A DNA stretch of 64,000 bases, taken from the NCBI GenBank assembly GCA_018970485.1, contig JAGWWH010000001.1, positions 7,137 to 71,136 of the forward strand, in the 5' to 3' direction. The DNA is from Pseudomonadota bacterium. Lineage in GTDB: Bacteria > Pseudomonadota > Alphaproteobacteria > Rickettsiales > UBA1997. Shown piece after piece: positions 715 to 54,392 of the stretch (the first letter of the stretch is position 1; each line of letters starts with the position of its first letter). The translations under genes and the position numbers were made by a program. The notes under the pieces were generated by a model. The model was given only the letters and a program-made list of their open reading frames with translations, was not told where the DNA came from and searched no databases.

Positions 715-3700
715 ATGACGACAATTTCTAACTACAACCACAAGCTCTCTGAAAAAAAGTGGCAAAAAATTTGGGCAGAAAAAAATACTTTTAAATTCGA
801 CGAAAATTCCGCGAAGGAAAAATATTACGTGCTCGAAATGTTTCCTTACCCGTCGGGAAAAATTCACATGGGACACCTTCGCAATTACGCGATTGGCGAT
901 GCTTTAGCACGTTTCAAAAAAATGCAGGGCTTCAATGTTTTGCATCCGATGGGTTTTGATGCTTTCGGTCTTCCCGCCGAAAACGCTGCACTTGAACACA
1001 AAATTCACCCCGAAAACTGGACGCTAAAAAACATCGAGCAGATGCGTGCCGAGTTGAAATCAATCGGCCTCTCGATTGATTGGAATCGCGAAGTCGCAAC
1101 TTGTTTGCCGAATTACTACAAACACGAGCAAAAAATTTTCCTCGATTTCCTTAAAAACGGCCTCGCTTACCAAAAAGAATCTCACGTCAATTGGGATCCA
1201 GTAGATCAAACCGTTCTTGCCAACGAACAAGTCATCGACGGCCGCGGCTGGCGTTCCGGCGCGTTAATCGAAAAAAGAAAATTGAAGCAATGGTTCCTAA
1301 AAGTTTCTGATTTTTCCGAAGAACTTTTGTCGGAATTAAAAAACCTCCCCGGCTGGGATGAGCGCGTGCGCATCATGCAGGAGAAGTGGATTGGGAAGAG
1401 TGAAGGGCAGGTGATTGATTTTAAAATTTCCGAATCAGCAAAAGCCCTCTTTGAAAAAGAGGGAGGAGTCGCGAGAGCGGCGGAGGGTGATTTAAGTTCC
1501 GAGTCCGCTTCACTAAAATCCTCCGTCGCCTCTAGCGACACCTCCTTTTTCGAAGGAGGCATTCCGGTTTACACGACACGTCCTGACACCTTATTTGGCG
1601 CGTCTTTTGTGGCGATTTCTCCGAATCATCCGATCGCTTTGGAGTTGGCGCAGACAAATCCTGAACTGCAAAATTTCATCGCTGAATGTAATCGTTCTGC
1701 GGTTGATGAACAAACTCTCGAGAAGCAAGAAAAGCGCGGTTTCAAAACCATTTTACAAGTTGAACATCCCCTCGATTCCAATTGGAAATTAGACGTTTAC
1801 GTCGCCAATTTCGTTTTGATGGAATACGGCACGGGAGCAATATTTGGCTGCCCGGCGCATGATGAGCGCGATTTTGAATTTGCGACAAAATACCAATTAC
1901 CAATTCGCCAAGTTGTTGAAAATTTCGACAAATTTTTAGCAGAAAATGATTTAGTAAATTTTTCCGATGCCGGCATCCAGGCAGTAATTGCAAGCCTCAA
2001 AGCCAAATCAAAAGATCAGACTGAACTCGCCAAACTCGCTTACGAATTTGTGCGTGACGAGATCAATCACTCAATGGATGACGCAAAATATTTGCCACAA
2101 ACTCCATTCCTCAAAGCCAGCGAAGTCTTGAGGGCAAAGGTTGGATTCTGCTTCGGAAAATCAGTTTTACTTTGCGCAATTTTGCGCGGAATGAAAATTC
2201 CTTGCGGATTTTCCGAACAACTTTTGATGTTCGACGAAACTGTTTCTGAGCGCAAAATCATTCACACCGTCAACGCGATTTACTTAAATAAAAAATGGAT
2301 TCGCGTCGATGCGCGCGGCAACAAGCCGGAAGATGTGAATGCGGATTTCAACGGACATCTCGCTTACCGGGCCCGCTCCGAATTTAACGAAATCGACAAT
2401 CTTGGAATCTACGCCGAAGTTTCTGCAGCGGCACGCAAACTTCACCAAATCAGCAAAACAAACGCCGAAATCATCGAAAATCTTTTTGCTGAAATTAACG
2501 CGCCAAGCCAAGCCAATCTTGAAGATGGAGTGATGATTAACTCTGACTTTTTGGATGGATTAACTTCTGCGGAAGCGAAGGAAAAAGTTTTCGAAAAACT
2601 TTCCGCAACCAACCAAGCGACGAAAAAAATTAATTACCGTCTTCGTGATTGGGGCGTTTCGCGTCAACGCTACTGGGGCTGCCCGATTCCAATTCTTTAC
2701 TTGGAAGATGGTTCTGTTGTGCCAGTTCCCGAAGATCAACTTCCGGTCGAGTTACCAAAAGATGTAGAATTCACCGGCGCCGGAAATCCTCTCGCGCTGC
2801 ATCCAACTTGGAAATACACGACTTACAAAGGCCCTGACAATAAAACCCTTAGGGCAATCCGCGAAACTGACACTTTTGACACTTTCTTCGAGAGCTCCTG
2901 GTACTTTTTGCGCTACATTTCTCAGCCAGAAAATAAAGCCTTCGACCGCGATGCAGCAAATAAATTCATGCCTGTAGACCAGTACATCGGTGGCGTTGAG
3001 CACGCAGTTTTGCATTTGCTTTACGCAAGATTTTTCACCAAAGCGCTAAAAAAATGCGGTTACCTCGACATCTCCGAGCCCTTCAAAAACCTGCTTACTC
3101 AAGGCATGGTTTGTCACGCAACTTACAAAGACAAAGAAACGGGAAAATGGCTTTTTCCTGCTGAGGCTCTCGAGCGCAAACCAGAAGAAGTAATTTTTGG
3201 TCGCTCTGAAAAAATGAGTAAGTCGAAGAAAAATACGGTAGAACCTTCGCGAATTGTTGAGGCCTACGGCGCAGATACCGCAAGGCTTTTCATGCTTTCC
3301 GACACTCCGCCTTCACGCGATTTAGAATGGTCTGAAAGCGGCATTGACGGTTGCTGGAAATACACCAATCGCCTTTGGAGGTTGGTTGCCTCCTTTGAAA
3401 AAGGAGTTGGTGCGCGTAGTGCGACGGAGGATTTAAATCTCACTAAACTTACTCACAAAACAATCGCCGAAGTAAAAGATGAGTACGAAAAAATGGGCTT
3501 CAACCGCGCGATTGCTAAGATCCGCGAATTTTCAAATGCGCTAGAAAAATCTGAAAACGTTTCTGAATTCGCGCTGAAAAATTTGGTGATTCTGATTGCG
3601 CCAATCATGCCGCATTTGGCTGAAGAATTGTGGGCAGAGCTTGGACAAAAAACTTTAGTCTCCGAAGAAAAATTCCCTGATTTTGATCCAGCTTTAATCG

Positions 3701-3897
3701 TCGAGGATGAAGTAGGAATTGCCGTGCAAGTTAGTGGCAAGCTACGCGCTGTAATTCAAATGCCGAAAGGTTTAAGCAAAGAAGCTCTCGAAAAAGCGGC
3801 GTTTGAAAATGAAAATGTAAAAAGATTTCTCGAAGGAAAAGAAGTTAAGAAAGTAATCACCATTCCGGACAAATTAGTGAACATCGTTGCTGTTTAG
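715..3897 (+). CDS. leuS: Leucine--tRNA ligase with three in-frame insertions
   Basis: [39 protein letters not shown]; 1060 aa versus the usual ~830-860. Confidence 0.98.
1445..1559. repeat. Palindromic repeat family C, inverted pair in-frame in leuS
   Basis: CCCTCTTTGAAAAAGAGGG (1445-1463) and CCTCCTTTTTCGAAGGAGG (1541-1559) hairpins with GGAGGGTGATTT / AAATCCTCCG flanks; matches 3389-3435 and 52989-53094. Confidence 0.85.
1921..2500 (+). other. Transglutaminase-like domain inserted in LeuRS
   Basis: [49 protein letters not shown] between LPIRQVV and DGVMINS. Confidence 0.85.
3389..3435. repeat. Palindromic repeat family C, single unit in-frame in leuS
   Basis: CCTCCTTTGAAAAAGGAG..GCGACGGAGGATTTA; reverse complement nearly identical to 52989-53034. 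Confidence 0.85.
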
Positions 3898-5560: not shown

Positions 5561-8206
5561 TTACATCCACCTTTCGCCAATTTTTAAATCCACAACTAGC
5601 GGCGCGTCTAGCTTCACGGCGTTTTCCATTTCCAAAATCAAAAGTTGCGACACTACTTCCACTTCCTCTTTAGGCACTTCCACCAAAAGCTCGTCATGAA
5701 TTTGTAGCACCATTTTCGCTCTCAAATGTTTTTTGCTGAGAGCTTTGCTCACTTGAATCATCGCCTTCTTAATGATGTCGGCGGCGCTGCCTTGGATTGG
5801 GGCGTTAATCGCTAATCTTTCCGATTCTTGACGGCGCATCGGGTTCTTGTTGTTGATCTCGTGCACAAAACATTTGCGACCAGAAAGAGTGGTGACGTAG
5901 CCGTTTTGCTTAGCGAAATTAATGTGATTTTTCATGTATTCCTCAATGCCAGGGTAGGTCGCAAAGTAAGAATGAATGTAATCTGCCGCTTCGCTTTGCG
6001 GAATGTCTAGCTGTCTTGCGAGGCCGAAAGCACTGATTCCGTAGATGATGCCAAAATTAATCGCCTTCGCTTTTGAGCGCATGTCGTTGCTTACTTCGCT
6101 TTCAGGAATTCCAAAAATTTGCGCGGCGGTAATGCGGTGAATGTCTTTATTTTCTTTGAAGGCTTCAATTAGCGCGGTGATTTTTGCGACGTGGGCAATC
6201 ACGCGTAACTCAATCTGTGAGTAGTCGGCGGAGATTAGGAGATGTCCGGGTTTCGCGACAAAAGCTTCACGAATTTTTCTGCCTTCAAGCGTGCGAATCG
6301 GAATATTTTGTAGGTTTGGATTAGTTGAATTGAGTCGTCCCGTAACAGTTGAAATCGAAGAGAAGCTAGTGTGAACGCGATTAGTTTCTGGATTAATTTC
6401 TTTGGGCAAAGCGTCGGTGTAGGTATTTTTTAATTTTGAAAATTTACGAAATTCGAGAACTTTTGTCGCAATTAAAAAACCTTGTTCTTCTAGCTCTTCA
6501 AGCACTTCGGCATTTGTTGAAAGTACGCCAGTTTTTTTCGATTTTTTCTTCGATTTAAGGCCAAGTTTTTCAAACAAAATTTCACCAAGCTGTTTGGGTG
6601 AAGCGACGTTGAAATCGCAATTAGCGAGCAGATGAATTTCTTTAGTCAGCTCTTCAATTTTTTTACCAAATTCTTGCGAGAGTTCGTGCAGTTTTTTTGT
6701 GTCGATTTTAATGCCTTCACGCTCGATTTGCGCTAGAACTGGAAGAAGAGGAAGTTCGTAAGAAGTGTAGGGAGTGTTAAGTTTTAGTTCGGAAATTTTC
6801 GGTGAAAGAATTGTGTAAAGTTGAGCGAGAGCAAAGTTACGAAAGCAGGCGGAGTCTAGTTCTGAGAAGTCTTTTCCTTCAGAATTTTCGACGAGATTTA
6901 AATCAACTAATTCACGAAAATCATTTTTAATCGAAGAGTTGAGAAGGTGATTAATCACCGAAACATCTTCAAAAGCGCTGATTTCTAAATCGTAGTTTCT
7001 GAGAAATTTTTTAGTGTCGAAAAATATTTTTTTAATCGAGCTGTCTTGCAAAATTTTTTGTAGCACATCGGGCACAATCTCTTGATTTCGTTGAGTTCCA
7101 AAGAGATCGACAACTTCTGATTTTACTGAGAAATAAAAGATTTCTTTTGGTGCTGAGTTATTTTTGTAAGTCGAGATTGTTAGAAAATCCTTGTCGCAAT
7201 CAATCACCAGCAAGCCATTTGCGAGCGCTGTTTTTCTGATCTCATCAATCATTTCAGTAGAAGTGATTTCAGTTTTTTTCACTTCTAAAAAAGAAATTTC
7301 ATTCTTTGTTGATTGAGCCTGCTTCACATCATCTTCAACCAAAAACTCTTTTTTTACGCGAGTAATTAGTGAGTGAAAACCTTGTTCCTGTAAAAATGAA
7401 ATCAGCCTTTGAGGATCAACGCTTTGAAGACGAAGATCATCAATTTCAATGCCAAGCTCAACCTCGTAACACAAGGCAACTAAACGCTTCGAAAGCTCGG
7501 CATTTTTTTTGCCTTCAAGCAAAAGTTGGTGACGTTTTTCCTGCTTAATTTTGTCGAGATTGGCAAAAAGATTTTCGAGAGTGCCAAATTCTGAAATTAA
7601 TTCTGCTGCGGTTTTTGGACCAATTCCTCTTACTCCAGAAACATTGTCAGATGAATCACCCATTAGCGCTAACACATCTACAACTTGCTCAGGTTCAACG
7701 GCGAATTTTTCAAAAACTTCTTTGCGCGTAATAAATTTATTTTTCATTGCGTCATACATGAAGACGCTTGGATTTACTAACTGCATCAAGTCTTTGTCGG
7801 AAGAAACCACGAGCACTTCGTAACCTTTTTCAACTGACTGTTTGGTGATGGTGGCGATTACGTCGTCGGCTTCGAATCCAACTTTTTCAATAATTGGTAA
7901 ACCGAGTGATTCAGCAGCTTGACGCACGATTGCAAATTGTGGCTTTAGATCTTCTGGGCAAGGCGGGCGATTAGCTTTGTAGTCTGGAAAAATGTCGTTA
8001 CGAAAAGTTTTGGATCCGGCATCAAAAACAACGGCGACATGCGAAACATTTAATCCGGCGAGTAGTTTAATCAGCATGTTGGTAAATCCGTAAACTGCGC
8101 CAACTGGCGTACCATCTTGACGGGTTAGCGGAGGAAGAGAGTGGTAAGCGCGAAAGACAAAACTGTAGCCATCAATGAGGGCAATTTTTTTTGCGTCAGA
8201 CATCAT
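5561..8206 (-). CDS. polA: DNA polymerase I
   Basis: LIDGYSFVFRAYH 5'-3' exonuclease, DYSQIELR, KAINFGIIYG, QIHDEL. Confidence 0.98.
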   Translation of the reverse strand: MMSDAKKIALIDGYSFVFRAYHSLPPLTRQDGTPVGAVYGFTNMLIKLLAGLNVSHVAVVFDAGSKTFRNDIFPDYKANRPPCPEDLKPQFAIVRQAAESLGLPIIEKVGFEADDVIATITKQSVEKGYEVLVVSSDKDLMQLVNPSVFMYDAMKNKFITRKEVFEKFAVEPEQVVDVLALMGDSSDNVSGVRGIGPKTAAELISEFGTLENLFANLDKIKQEKRHQLLLEGKKNAELSKRLVALCYEVELGIEIDDLRLQSVDPQRLISFLQEQGFHSLITRVKKEFLVEDDVKQAQSTKNEISFLEVKKTEITSTEMIDEIRKTALANGLLVIDCDKDFLTISTYKNNSAPKEIFYFSVKSEVVDLFGTQRNQEIVPDVLQKILQDSSIKKIFFDTKKFLRNYDLEISAFEDVSVINHLLNSSIKNDFRELVDLNLVENSEGKDFSELDSACFRNFALAQLYTILSPKISELKLNTPYTSYELPLLPVLAQIEREGIKIDTKKLHELSQEFGKKIEELTKEIHLLANCDFNVASPKQLGEILFEKLGLKSKKKSKKTGVLSTNAEVLEELEEQGFLIATKVLEFRKFSKLKNTYTDALPKEINPETNRVHTSFSSISTVTGRLNSTNPNLQNIPIRTLEGRKIREAFVAKPGHLLISADYSQIELRVIAHVAKITALIEAFKENKDIHRITAAQIFGIPESEVSNDMRSKAKAINFGIIYGISAFGLARQLDIPQSEAADYIHSYFATYPGIEEYMKNHINFAKQNGYVTTLSGRKCFVHEINNKNPMRRQESERLAINAPIQGSAADIIKKAMIQVSKALSKKHLRAKMVLQIHDELLVEVPKEEVEVVSQLLILEMENAVKLDAPLVVDLKIGERWM

Positions 8207-51710: not shown

Positions 51711-54392
51711 TTAAATTTTAGATATTTTTTGGTCATTCAAACTCTTCCAAACAAATTCGGTAGTGAATGGAAGTAGCGGTGCCGCGGTTTCGCACATATT
51801 TACTAAAACAGTGTAAAGCACGTCGTAAGCTTCTTGCTTATCTTGATCAAGTTCGCCTTTCCAAAAACGCTGACGATTACGACGAATGTACCAATTATTC
51901 AGCGCTTCAAAAAATTGATTAAACTCTTCGCAGGCAATTACCGTGTCATAGTTTTGCATTGCCTCATCAATCTTAGAAACCGCTGTCTTTAGCTTGGCTA
52001 AAATGTAGCGATCCAAAATGCTGCTTAAATCTTTTTTAAATTCGATGCGCTGAGCTTTGATTCCATCGGCATTGGCGTAAAGACAGAAGAAGTTGAAGGC
52101 GTTGATCAAAGGCTTGATCGACAAACGTAAGCAATCGCGAATTGCCTTTCCATCTTTGTCGATGCGCAGTTCTTGTCCACGCATCACCGGTTGCGAAATC
52201 ATGTAAAAGCGCATGGCGTCTGAGCCGAGGCTTGAAAAAATTTCGAGTGGATCTGCGTAATTTCGCAAACGCTTAGAAAGTTTTTGTGATTTCTCATCCA
52301 AGATTGTGCCGTGGCAAATGACGTTTTTAAACGGTGCGCGATCAAAAAGCGCGGTCGACAAAACAAAGAGCGTGTAAAACCAACCGCGAGTTTGCGCGAC
52401 ATATTCGGTGATGAAATCCGCCGGAAAATTTTCCTCAAACCATTCTTTATTTTCGAAAGGGTAGTGCACTTGCGCGTAAGGCATCGAACCCGATTCAAAC
52501 CAGCAATCAAGCACATCGGTGACACGTTTGTAAGTTTCGCCATTTTCAACAAAAGTGATGTTGTCGATGAAAGGGCGATGCAGATTCTCGATTTTTTGTC
52601 CGGAAACTTTTTCTAAATCAGCGACAGATCCAAACACACGAATCTTCCCCGTTTCACTTTTCCAAACCGGCACCGGACAGCCCCAGAAGCGGTTGCGCGT
52701 GATTGACCAATCGCGAGCGCCTTCCAGCCATTTACCAAATTGTCCGTCTTTGATGTGGTTCGGGATCCAGTTTACGCCTTGGTTTAACTCAACCATACGA
52801 TCTTTGAAATCGGTGACGCGCACATACCAAGAAGACACGGCTTTGTAGATTAGCGGAGTGTCTGTGCGCCAGCAGTGTGGGTAGTTGTGGAGATATTGTT
52901 CAGTTTTAAGCCAGGCGCATGTTGCTTTGAGGTATTTGATGATGTCGTCATTGGTTTCAAAAACTTGGCGACCTTTGAGTGCGAGAGTTAAATCCTCCGT
53001 CGCACTTCCTGCGCCACCTCCTTTTTCAAAGGAGACTTGGCCCTCTTTGGAAAAGAGGGAAGGAGACTCGTTGGCGTCGGAAGGGTGATTTAAATCAAAA
53101 ATCTCGGACGTGAACTTGCCACCTTCATCAACCGGGCAAAGAGTTGGAATTCCGTTCGCTTTGCAAAGTAATTGGTCATCTTCACCGAAACCTGGAGCGA
53201 GGTGAACGATGCCAGTTCCTTCTTCTGTTGAAACGAAATCGCCGTGAAGAACTACGAAAGAATTTTTGGTTTTTTCGACAAGGTAAGGGAAGAGGGGTTT
53301 GTATTTTAGTTCATTTAGTAAAACCCTACCGCCAAAAACATTAATTGCTTCGTAACCAGAATATTCTGAAGAAAGTTTTGAAGATTTTAATTCAGAGATC
53401 ATTCGCTCTCTTTCCGCGTTAAATTCTTCTGCATCTAACCATCCAGATCCTGGAATTTTGATTCCTTTGTTTAGTGAAGAAACAGATTGGATTAGAACTT
53501 CATCCTCTTTTTCTAAGGCTGCATAAGATATGTTTTCACCAATCGCCAAACCTAAGTTTGAAGGCAAAGTCCAAGGAGTTGTGGTCCACGCAACTAAGAA
53601 AACTTTTTTGCCGTTGTATCCAAGTTTTTTTGCACTTTCCTCAGTTAATTCAAACTTCACCGTCACCGCCTTACTAGCCTTCTGCCTGTAAGAATTATCC
53701 ATCCTCGTTTCAAAGTTCGACAAAGGTGTCTGACAAGCCCAAGAGTAAGGCACGACGCGGAAATCTTCGTAGAGCAAACCTTTTTCAAAAAGCTGATTAA
53801 ACGCCCAAATCACTGATTCCATGTAGCTCAAATCCATCGTTTTGTAGCTATTTTTGAAATCGACGAAACGGCCTTGGCGCGTGACGTAATTCTCCCAATC
53901 ATCGGCATATTTCATCACCGACTTGCGGCAAGAATCGTTAAATTTTTCGATGCCATATTCTTGAATCGCGATTTGCCCAGAAACGCCGAGTTCTTTTTCA
54001 ACTTCCATTTCCACCGGCAAGCCGTGCGTATCCCAGCCGAAACGACGTTCAACTTTTTTGCCTTTCATGGTTTGGTAACGCGCGACTAAATCTTTGATGA
54101 AGCCCGTAAGCAAGTGGCCGTAGTGTGGAAGGCCGTTGGCGAAAGGAGGGCCGTCGTAGAAGACGAATTCATGCTTGGTGTTTGCTGCTTCGTGGCGACA
54201 GTTTGTGTGATCTTTGAGGGCGCAGGGATTAAGGATTGGGGAGACGTTGTCTTCATCCAAATCGTTAGAAAAATTTCTGCTCTCAACAGATTTTTCGAAA
54301 ACTTTTTGTTCTTGCCAAAAACGCAGGATTTCTTCCTCCATCTTAGCGAAATCAAGATTTTGATTCGCTTCCGGGTAATATTTTTGTTTCAT
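51711..54392 (-). CDS. ileS: Isoleucine--tRNA ligase, class 2 type, C-terminally short
   Basis: FYDGPPFANGLPHYGH, WTTTPWTLP, GTGIVH.AP, QTRGWFY, KLSKR. Confidence 0.96.
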   Translation of the reverse strand: MKQKYYPEANQNLDFAKMEEEILRFWQEQKVFEKSVESRNFSNDLDEDNVSPILNPCALKDHTNCRHEAANTKHEFVFYDGPPFANGLPHYGHLLTGFIKDLVARYQTMKGKKVERRFGWDTHGLPVEMEVEKELGVSGQIAIQEYGIEKFNDSCRKSVMKYADDWENYVTRQGRFVDFKNSYKTMDLSYMESVIWAFNQLFEKGLLYEDFRVVPYSWACQTPLSNFETRMDNSYRQKASKAVTVKFELTEESAKKLGYNGKKVFLVAWTTTPWTLPSNLGLAIGENISYAALEKEDEVLIQSVSSLNKGIKIPGSGWLDAEEFNAERERMISELKSSKLSSEYSGYEAINVFGGRVLLNELKYKPLFPYLVEKTKNSFVVLHGDFVSTEEGTGIVHLAPGFGEDDQLLCKANGIPTLCPVDEGGKFTSEIFDLNHPSDANESPSLFSKEGQVSFEKGGGAGSATEDLTLALKGRQVFETNDDIIKYLKATCAWLKTEQYLHNYPHCWRTDTPLIYKAVSSWYVRVTDFKDRMVELNQGVNWIPNHIKDGQFGKWLEGARDWSITRNRFWGCPVPVWKSETGKIRVFGSVADLEKVSGQKIENLHRPFIDNITFVENGETYKRVTDVLDCWFESGSMPYAQVHYPFENKEWFEENFPADFITEYVAQTRGWFYTLFVLSTALFDRAPFKNVICHGTILDEKSQKLSKRLRNYADPLEIFSSLGSDAMRFYMISQPVMRGQELRIDKDGKAIRDCLRLSIKPLINAFNFFCLYANADGIKAQRIEFKKDLSSILDRYILAKLKTAVSKIDEAMQNYDTVIACEEFNQFFEALNNWYIRRNRQRFWKGELDQDKQEAYDVLYTVLVNMCETAAPLLPFTTEFVWKSLNDQKISKI
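52989..53094. repeat. Palindromic repeat family C pair in-frame in ileS
   Basis: TAAATCCTCCGTCGCAC..CCTCCTTTTTCAAAGGAG and CCCTCTTTGGAAAAGAGGG..GGGTGATTTAAA. Confidence 0.88.

Follow-up and report, generated by a model that had tools for sequence, protein, structure and literature searches.

What is a complete transglutaminase-like protein doing inside the proofreading domain of a leucyl-tRNA synthetase (LeuRS)? The question is raised by a stretch of 64,000 nucleotides (positions 7,137 to 71,136 of contig JAGWWH010000001.1, assembly GCA_018970485.1; below, "the window" means this whole stretch) from a bacterium classified in the Rickettsiales (UBA1997). The leuS gene in the window encodes a LeuRS of 1060 amino acids, in which a segment of 199 amino acids, with a predicted Cys-His-Asp triad, lies in frame within the connective peptide 1 (CP1) editing domain. 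The answer favoured here, with a probability of about 0.5, is that the segment is an active accessory thiol enzyme doing the job of its family while tethered to LeuRS. The features of the insert are as follows.

1921..2517, plus strand: in-frame insert of 199 amino acids (residues 403–601), a complete transglutaminase-like protein, with boundaries set by comparison with short LeuRS forms.
1990..2313, plus strand: Transglut_core (PF01841), residues 426–533; 46.4 bits in Pfam, cut-off 23.
2149..2151, plus strand: codon of Cys479, the predicted nucleophile; Cys in 36 of 36 rows of insert-bearing LeuRS and in at least 90% of 24 family members.
2263..2265, plus strand: codon of His517; invariant.
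2308..2310, plus strand: codon of Asp532; invariant.

The boundaries come from a comparison with five outgroups and with 17 short LeuRS from the genus: residues 403–601 stand in place of an 8-residue linker (a net gain of about 191 amino acids), and the insert starts 18 residues past the AHD..RD editing motif. An earlier note on this DNA, made from the sequence, had described an in-frame insert at 1921–2500. There is indeed a single open reading frame of 1060 amino acids, in which the LeuRS editing domain of Pfam is interrupted by Transglut_core; the 5′ end given for the insert was right, whereas the 3′ end was about 17 nucleotides short of the true end at 2517. The residues that the earlier note had picked out as a triad, Cys479, His517 and Asp532, are C, H and D in the motifs it had quoted. 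The match to PF01841 has an E-value of 5e-12 in the context of the whole LeuRS and rises to 50.0 bits for the insert alone. An AlphaFold2 model of the insert alone has a predicted local distance difference test score (pLDDT) of 78.6 and a predicted template modelling score (pTM) of 0.83, and is weaker over the sheet that carries the His and the Asp (pLDDT 51–68 at insert residues ~105–170). In Foldseek, the best match of this model is 3isr_A, a putative cysteine protease of Cytophaga (E = 1.6e-5, probability 1.00, template modelling (TM) score 0.50), followed by 9crn, TglA of Streptococcus pyogenes (E = 2.3e-5), and then by transglutaminases and arylamine N-acetyltransferases. Thus, the transglutaminase assignment proposed earlier holds at the level of both profile and fold and, going by these matches, the insert is a transglutaminase-like (papain-fold) domain with a Cys-His-Asp triad at the catalytic columns of the family. 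Members of this superfamily are thiol enzymes that work through an acyl-enzyme intermediate.

More specific identities were sought. A search of the Protein Data Bank (PDB) with a sequence profile of the insert family gave nothing below E 0.1, NCBIfam had no family that matched the insert or either of two free-standing relatives, and PADLOC gave none for the three proteins scanned. Arylamine N-acetyltransferases and animal transglutaminases have the same papain-like core and a Cys-His-Asp triad, and catalyse through an acyl-thioester; their Foldseek matches to the insert have E-values of 4e-3 to 1e-2, TM scores (by query) of 0.40–0.46 and sequence identities of 10–18%. An arylamine N-acetyltransferase was rejected because that family is absent among the Pfam matches at E ≤ 1 and the fold match is weak; an animal-type crosslinking transglutaminase (TG2, factor XIII) was rejected because the 199-residue insert lacks the flanking domains, with TM scores (by target) of 0.13–0.16 and identities of 10–14%. 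An intein was rejected because there is no splicing or endonuclease family among the Pfam matches of the LeuRS, and a multi-copy mobile insertion because the insert matches once in the host genome (G000). The GC content of the insert is similar to that of the rest of leuS. The same genome has another frame with a PF01841 match (53.7 bits) at 7133–7387 of contig C53, outside the window, in an open reading frame of 457 amino acids. It belongs to a different subfamily, as the insert search had no match to it at E ≤ 0.001.

The architecture recurs well beyond this one assembly. The same segment, 66–84% identical, was found in 11 further genomes of the genus (of 24), always inside a stop-free frame of LeuRS length. 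A search of 5.8 billion clustered proteins with the insert region alone yielded 31 protein clusters with LeuRS and PF01841, with insert identity down to 50%; these come from NCBI, ENA, JGI and Logan assemblies. Logan contigs of two sequencing runs (X1 and X2) span both junctions with 0 differences (record 5 of X2 covers 1600–2653), the two runs being from the same sample, which may be the source of the assembly. In a further run (X4), two joints, on pieces only 90–95% alike and with loose ends, were considered as a deleted form of this leuS and rejected; they are read as LeuRS flanks of other organisms.

The nearest relatives of the insert are free-standing proteins. A profile of 15 inserts, searched against 1.84 billion representative proteins, matched 1106 proteins at E ≤ 0.001, of which 420 reach 1e-10 and 47 reach 1e-30. 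Among the best 150 of the 1106 matches, the top one alone is of LeuRS size (P0002, 1050 amino acids; its source name is leuS of a "Rickettsiaceae bacterium" metagenome-assembled genome (MAG)). The matches after P0002 have 199–209 amino acids and align over profile positions 5–207 of 210; for example, these positions align to residues 8–204 of a 208-residue protein with E = 1e-44. The insert is therefore homologous from end to end to proteins of about 200 amino acids, and would be a complete small protein rather than a fragment. In an alignment of 4 inserts and 20 free-standing proteins, the insert of the window is 31–41% identical to the latter, and His, Asp and ten other columns are invariant, with the Cys in at least 90% of rows. 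The free-standing proteins (e.g., the cluster P0003/P0152, with the source name "transglutaminase domain-containing protein") share the same triad, and are without an NCBIfam model (in the two scanned) and without a solved structure detectable by sequence. They occur as separate genes or fused end-to-end to other domains; none is nested inside another enzyme, unlike the insert. The 13 inserts sampled for a tree of the family (86 rows) group in a single clade, with full support in the SH-like approximate likelihood ratio test (SH-aLRT 100), so a single capture is the simplest reading. A complete free-standing gene was thus captured in frame into leuS, apparently once.

The free-standing family is present in at least 586 species-level genomes, the best 80 of which are from Lachnospiraceae, other Bacillota, Spirochaetota, Cyanobacteriota, Methanobacteriaceae and others. 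Within the same order, in another family, genome G111 has a free-standing homologue of 192 amino acids (L057:6460–7035, minus strand), about 80 bp downstream of a gene for a glutamine-synthetase-like protein of 358 amino acids on the same strand (L057:7118–8191, minus strand). This homologue is not sister to the inserts in the family tree, and its glutamine-synthetase-like neighbour does not figure in the 25 families most often found next to free-standing members. Sixteen fused forms of the family were scanned: seven are joined to a GNAT acetyltransferase and two to an alpha/beta hydrolase, and the remainder to a methyltransferase, a class III aminotransferase, a nucleotidyltransferase, a phosphatase, Sel1 repeats or DUF3795, with one lacking a second domain. 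GNAT (PF00583) also makes up 21 of the 115 immediate neighbours at 64 free-standing loci. The commonest GNAT neighbour has uncharacterised GNATs and PA3944 as its best PDB matches, and an MccE-like identity was rejected. These fusions and neighbours suggest that the family metabolises or modifies compounds that bear amine or acyl groups.

The host enzyme is a bacterial LeuRS, with the following features.

715..3897, plus strand: leuS, leucyl-tRNA synthetase of 1060 amino acids; a single open reading frame, TIGR00396, the sole LeuRS of the genome.
865..876, plus strand: HIGH-type class I signature, HMGH (residues 51–54), read from the translation and unchanged in all 22 insert-bearing LeuRS aligned.
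1555..1920, plus strand: part of the CP1 editing domain before the insert (PF13603), with the T-rich, GTG and AHD..RD motifs, found in 36 of 36 rows.
2518..2649, plus strand: part of the CP1 editing domain after the insert, up to the strand re-entering the catalytic core; the second PF13603 stretch, aligning to 6q89 from chain residue 388 onward.
3211..3225, plus strand: KMSKS signature (residues 833–837), read from the translation and likewise unchanged in all 22 insert-bearing LeuRS aligned.

In the NCBIfam scan, the 1060-residue protein scores 1001.6 bits against leuS_bact (TIGR00396), for which the equivalog cut-off is 548.4. The Pfam match to the editing domain PF13603 (192.6 bits) covers residues 281–407, corresponding to profile positions 21–146 of 185, and a second stretch of it follows the insert. 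The closest solved LeuRS, 6q89 (877 amino acids), is matched over its full length in three blocks (E = 1.9e-242), and has about 13 residues (chain 375–387) where the LeuRS of the window has 199. The HIGH, KMSKS and editing motifs are shared with 6q89 and with the 3zgz/4aq7-type entries of E. coli, from which the LeuRS of the window also differs by a private repeat at residues ~242–284. The host genome is 97.55% complete and has a single locus above the leuS cut-off. The chimeric LeuRS is therefore expected to charge tRNA-Leu, and both leucylation and editing activity are expected of it. Another hypervariable loop separates the catalytic core from the anticodon-binding domain, at residues ~890–905 (window ~3380–3430); in relatives it holds inserts of up to about 55 residues, and the same columns are affected in L046, L047, L048 and L015–L017.

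The Cys, His and Asp are kept in all 36 rows of insert-bearing LeuRS (31 clusters plus 5 loci, with some duplicates among the rows), so that the loss of the triad in relatives, which the earlier note had considered, was seen in none of them; partial insert-bearing genes agree on the triad wherever the motif is covered. All 12 of the family-invariant columns are kept in the inserts. Ratios of nonsynonymous to synonymous substitution rates (dN/dS) were calculated pairwise by the method of Nei and Gojobori, using the 27 of 120 pairs with dS < 1.5: they are 0.065–0.39 (median 0.157) for the insert and 0.046–0.196 (median 0.107) for the LeuRS body, many of the dS values being near 1, which makes the ratios rough. 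At the protein level, the insert evolves about 1.5 times faster than the LeuRS body. Taken together, these comparisons indicate that the insert is clearly constrained, i.e., under purifying selection.

The host clade is one family of Rickettsiales-like bacteria with small genomes (1.1–1.9 Mb). Of the 44 genomes of the genus, 19 carry the insert, 19 have a short loop and 6 could be assigned to neither state (G020, G005, G002, G052 and G023, which are fragmentary, and G053, which gave no match). In an order-wide draw of 400 genomes, the insert was found in a LeuRS-length frame in 8: 6 from the genus, plus a single genome from each of two further genera. All 8 belong to one family (three genera). 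Judging from these genomes, the insert is dispensable, i.e., accessory, as the ancestral short loop is retained by about half of the close relatives. Some insert-bearing MAGs are deposited under unlikely names (Rhizobium sp., Rickettsia typhi; among L061, L062, L066 and L067), others as Rickettsiales, Rickettsiaceae or Alphaproteobacteria bacterium, and the public taxon labels of this clade look unreliable.

The two states are scattered over the species tree. A tree of RpoB from 40 genomes (36 of them labelled, 16 with and 20 without the insert) requires 7 state changes, 6 of which are forced by well-supported branches; left out of it were G050, G021, G042, G046 and G053, without an rpoB match at 1e-100, and also G006, G012, G020 and G051. 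Even sister species differ in insert state (G139 vs G098; G003/G056 vs G041). The tree of the LeuRS body requires 5 changes, of which 3 are forced. Short alleles from the genus and from four further genera of its family share with 3 of 5 outgroups an LP[YF]-type motif (FPY or LPA in outgroups) before an LEDG-like segment, and insert-bearing alleles lack this motif. Since the motif is common to short alleles and outgroups, we infer that the short alleles are of ancestral type and not derivatives of deletion. One insert-bearing allele, L024 (genome G050), appears to be a mosaic: the insert tree pairs L024 with L026 (support 97/96), the body tree pairs L026 with L027 (98), and the flanks of L024 are 88–95% identical to those of short alleles. 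The body positions that separate insert-bearing from short alleles are residues 607 and 614 only, beside the 3′ junction. This suggests, on moderate evidence, that the segment was captured once and that relatives have since gained and lost it by homologous recombination with one another. In favour of the L024 mosaic, the two opposite constraints gave approximately unbiased (AU) test p-values of 0.023 and 0.053, for groups that were picked after the trees had been seen. Two further tests limit the recombination part of this history, which does not extend to the transfer of whole genes: the LeuRS body data do not reject monophyly of the insert-bearing alleles (AU p = 0.203), nor do they reject holding together the RpoB clade of G017, G001, G019, G003, G041 and G056 (p = 0.198).

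The place of the insert is not its own. The loop, late in the CP1 editing domain, holds 18–30 extra residues at the insert site in short alleles of the genus, one of these additions being palindromic, as would be anticipated from the statement of the earlier note that this loop tolerates insertions. In the short-allele leuS of G010 (L037:2860–2980), the loop that elsewhere holds the transglutaminase-like domain contains a palindromic repeat, which is 91% identical to itself on the opposite strand; of its 12 matches in the genome of G010, several are at contig ends; L035 has a related shorter version. Because the loop also holds unrelated repeats, it is an insertion hot spot, and position alone says little about function. 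The leuS gene of the window itself carries a repeat elsewhere.

1438..1565, plus strand: in-frame palindromic repeat of about 120 nucleotides (residues ~242–284), private to this leuS and separate from the transglutaminase-like insert.

This repeat is GC-rich, has 27 matches in the host genome on both strands at 68–96% identity, and is absent from the other 32 LeuRS aligned. Its predicted hairpin has a free energy of -60.7 kcal/mol (z = -5.3), with 0 of 200 shuffles as good. Partial copies lie at ~3387–3434 (inside leuS, minus strand) and at 52990–53034. Rickettsia palindromic elements insert in frame into genes. Like them, the present repeats are in-frame insertions in surface loops of essential Rickettsiales proteins, and the leuS repeat at residues ~242–284 and the loop repeat of G010 behave alike in this respect. 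Unlike them, the transglutaminase-like insert is a single-copy, non-palindromic, folded domain with homologues across phyla.

With these elements in place, the sequence of events and the working of the domain may be pictured as follows. A gene for a transglutaminase-like protein of about 200 amino acids was captured into the CP1 surface loop in an ancestor within one family, the choice of site in LeuRS presumably being opportunistic, since the loop also takes junk repeats. The domain would be a working thiol enzyme, either a hydrolase or an acyl or amide transferase acting via a thioester on Cys479, and would have the same role as its free-standing relatives, with a substrate that bears an amine or acyl group. 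What the fusion would mainly offer is constitutive expression and proximity to the translation machinery, without the domain drawing on intermediates of LeuRS. The insert-bearing and short alleles would be exchanged between relatives by homologous recombination.

Besides the roughness of the dN/dS ratios, several points weigh against a tethered, working enzyme. Purifying selection, and even retention of the triad, may in part be imposed by folding alone, since a domain within an essential enzyme has to fold cleanly. The Cys is missing from two free-standing relatives in the 24-row alignment, so the family tolerates non-catalytic members. A conserved operon of the free-standing family, which might have indicated its substrate, was not found, the largest neighbour cluster comprising 8 of 68 loci. 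GNAT genes make up about 1% of the genome background, and GNAT adjacency may merely be clustering of small housekeeping enzymes in Bacillota. Finally, that the domain would not draw on intermediates of LeuRS is read from the hot-spot nature of the loop.

The strongest competing explanation is that the insert is a tolerated passenger without a function of its own, which has been kept since clean deletion is rare and conserved since misfolding would cripple LeuRS. The loop does accept unrelated insertions of 18–30 residues, one of them a multi-copy palindromic repeat; the same leuS carries another in-frame repeat; about half of the relatives live without the insert; and the insert has a dN/dS about 1.5 times that of the body. 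A constraint on the fold alone, however, would not predict a triad in 36 of 36 rows among inserts down to 50% identity, nor the retention of every family-invariant column, and a dN/dS of 0.07–0.39 is far from neutral. Moreover, with short alleles in circulation and one gene a mosaic, recombination would seem able to remove the insert, and still it persists in three genera. The neutral passenger that the earlier note had set beside its own proposal is thus weakened by the evidence for purifying selection, while keeping a place here as an unlikely but serious alternative to an active accessory enzyme.

A further possibility, which we consider improbable, is that the domain performs chemistry coupled to the ligands of LeuRS, along the lines of the earlier note, which had proposed Leu-tRNA or Leu-AMP as acyl donor: formation of a leucyl thioester from Leu-tRNA or Leu-AMP, extra hydrolytic proofreading, or the neutralising of leucyl-adenylate mimics. 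The insert does lie inside the editing domain, close behind the AHD..RD motif, and enzymes of the same fold (arylamine N-acetyltransferases, transglutaminases) use acyl-thioesters; as noted above, however, the loop is an insertion hot spot and position need not mean function. Residues 607 and 614, beside the junction, track the insert and could represent co-adaptation, but may equally hitch-hike with it in recombination. The free-standing relatives associate with GNATs, and NCBIfam lists, by name only, an IleRS with a GNAT domain. Aminoacyl-nucleotide inhibitors of synthetases are detoxified by the GNAT MccE2 and the peptidase MccF, and LeuRS is the target of the leucyl-adenylate mimic TM84 (PMC8323819); together these provide a precedent in logic for such coupled chemistry. 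The commonest GNAT neighbour of the family resembles uncharacterised GNATs of the PDB and not MccE. A model of the full-length LeuRS from a 22-sequence alignment (pLDDT 65, pTM 0.41) is too poor for inter-domain geometry and so gives no geometric support. Leu/Phe-tRNA protein transferase (PF03588) was found in none of the 44 genomes of the genus, 29 of which are at least 90% complete (the control was positive in 4 of 14 reference genomes); as it is absent whatever the insert state, there is no complementary pattern. In its most developed form, this explanation would make the insert a third catalytic site on LeuRS ligands, either a detoxifying or proofreading hydrolase or a transferase passing leucine from the thioester to an amine acceptor, and the two alleles would coexist because the benefit depends on the environment, e.g., on inhibitor-making neighbours; this we regard as quite doubtful.

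That the whole arrangement is an assembly chimera or a mis-joined reading frame, a concern of the earlier note that a metagenome-type assembly in 54 contigs might well prompt, deserves practically no credence, as the architecture recurs in 31 clusters from independent archives, in 19 genomes of the genus and in two further genera, the frames are uninterrupted, and the junctions are bridged with 0 differences in contigs of two runs of the same sample.

Preference remains with the active accessory enzyme. Other synthetases offer partial parallels to the architecture. Eukaryotic synthetases carry appended domains, and the IleRS with a GNAT domain (NCBIfam NF040702, by model name only) would be a synthetase with an acquired, unrelated domain of enzyme type. 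Unlike synthetases with domains appended at their ends, the present LeuRS has a papain-fold domain nested in a loop of the editing domain, and both forms occur in one genus. No description of a synthetase with a transglutaminase-like domain was found in the literature (subscription journals not covered). PMC10318531 was considered as a prior description and rejected, the synthetase term standing, in the portion of that paper covered, solely in the reference list. The insert-bearing proteins themselves are in public databases, named simply as leuS, and PF01841 is among the domains precomputed for them. What we rate as new is a synthetase with an acquired accessory domain nested in its editing domain and polymorphic among close relatives.

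Catalytic domains nested in bacterial aminoacyl-tRNA synthetases are rare, and here one would lie inside the proofreading domain of an essential enzyme, in bacteria with reduced genomes. Its active-site residues are intact, yet the insert is optional among close relatives, and the occurrence of insert-bearing and short alleles in sister species amounts to a natural paired experiment. The case may also provide a handle on a widespread family of small cytoplasmic transglutaminase-like proteins. In terms of gene evolution, it would be a clean case of a whole gene turned into an internal domain, by capture at a repeat-accepting loop and then spread or replacement through recombination. Finally, if it is true that the domain acts on aminoacyl-adenylates or aminoacyl-tRNA, this would be a new type of synthetase-linked chemistry.

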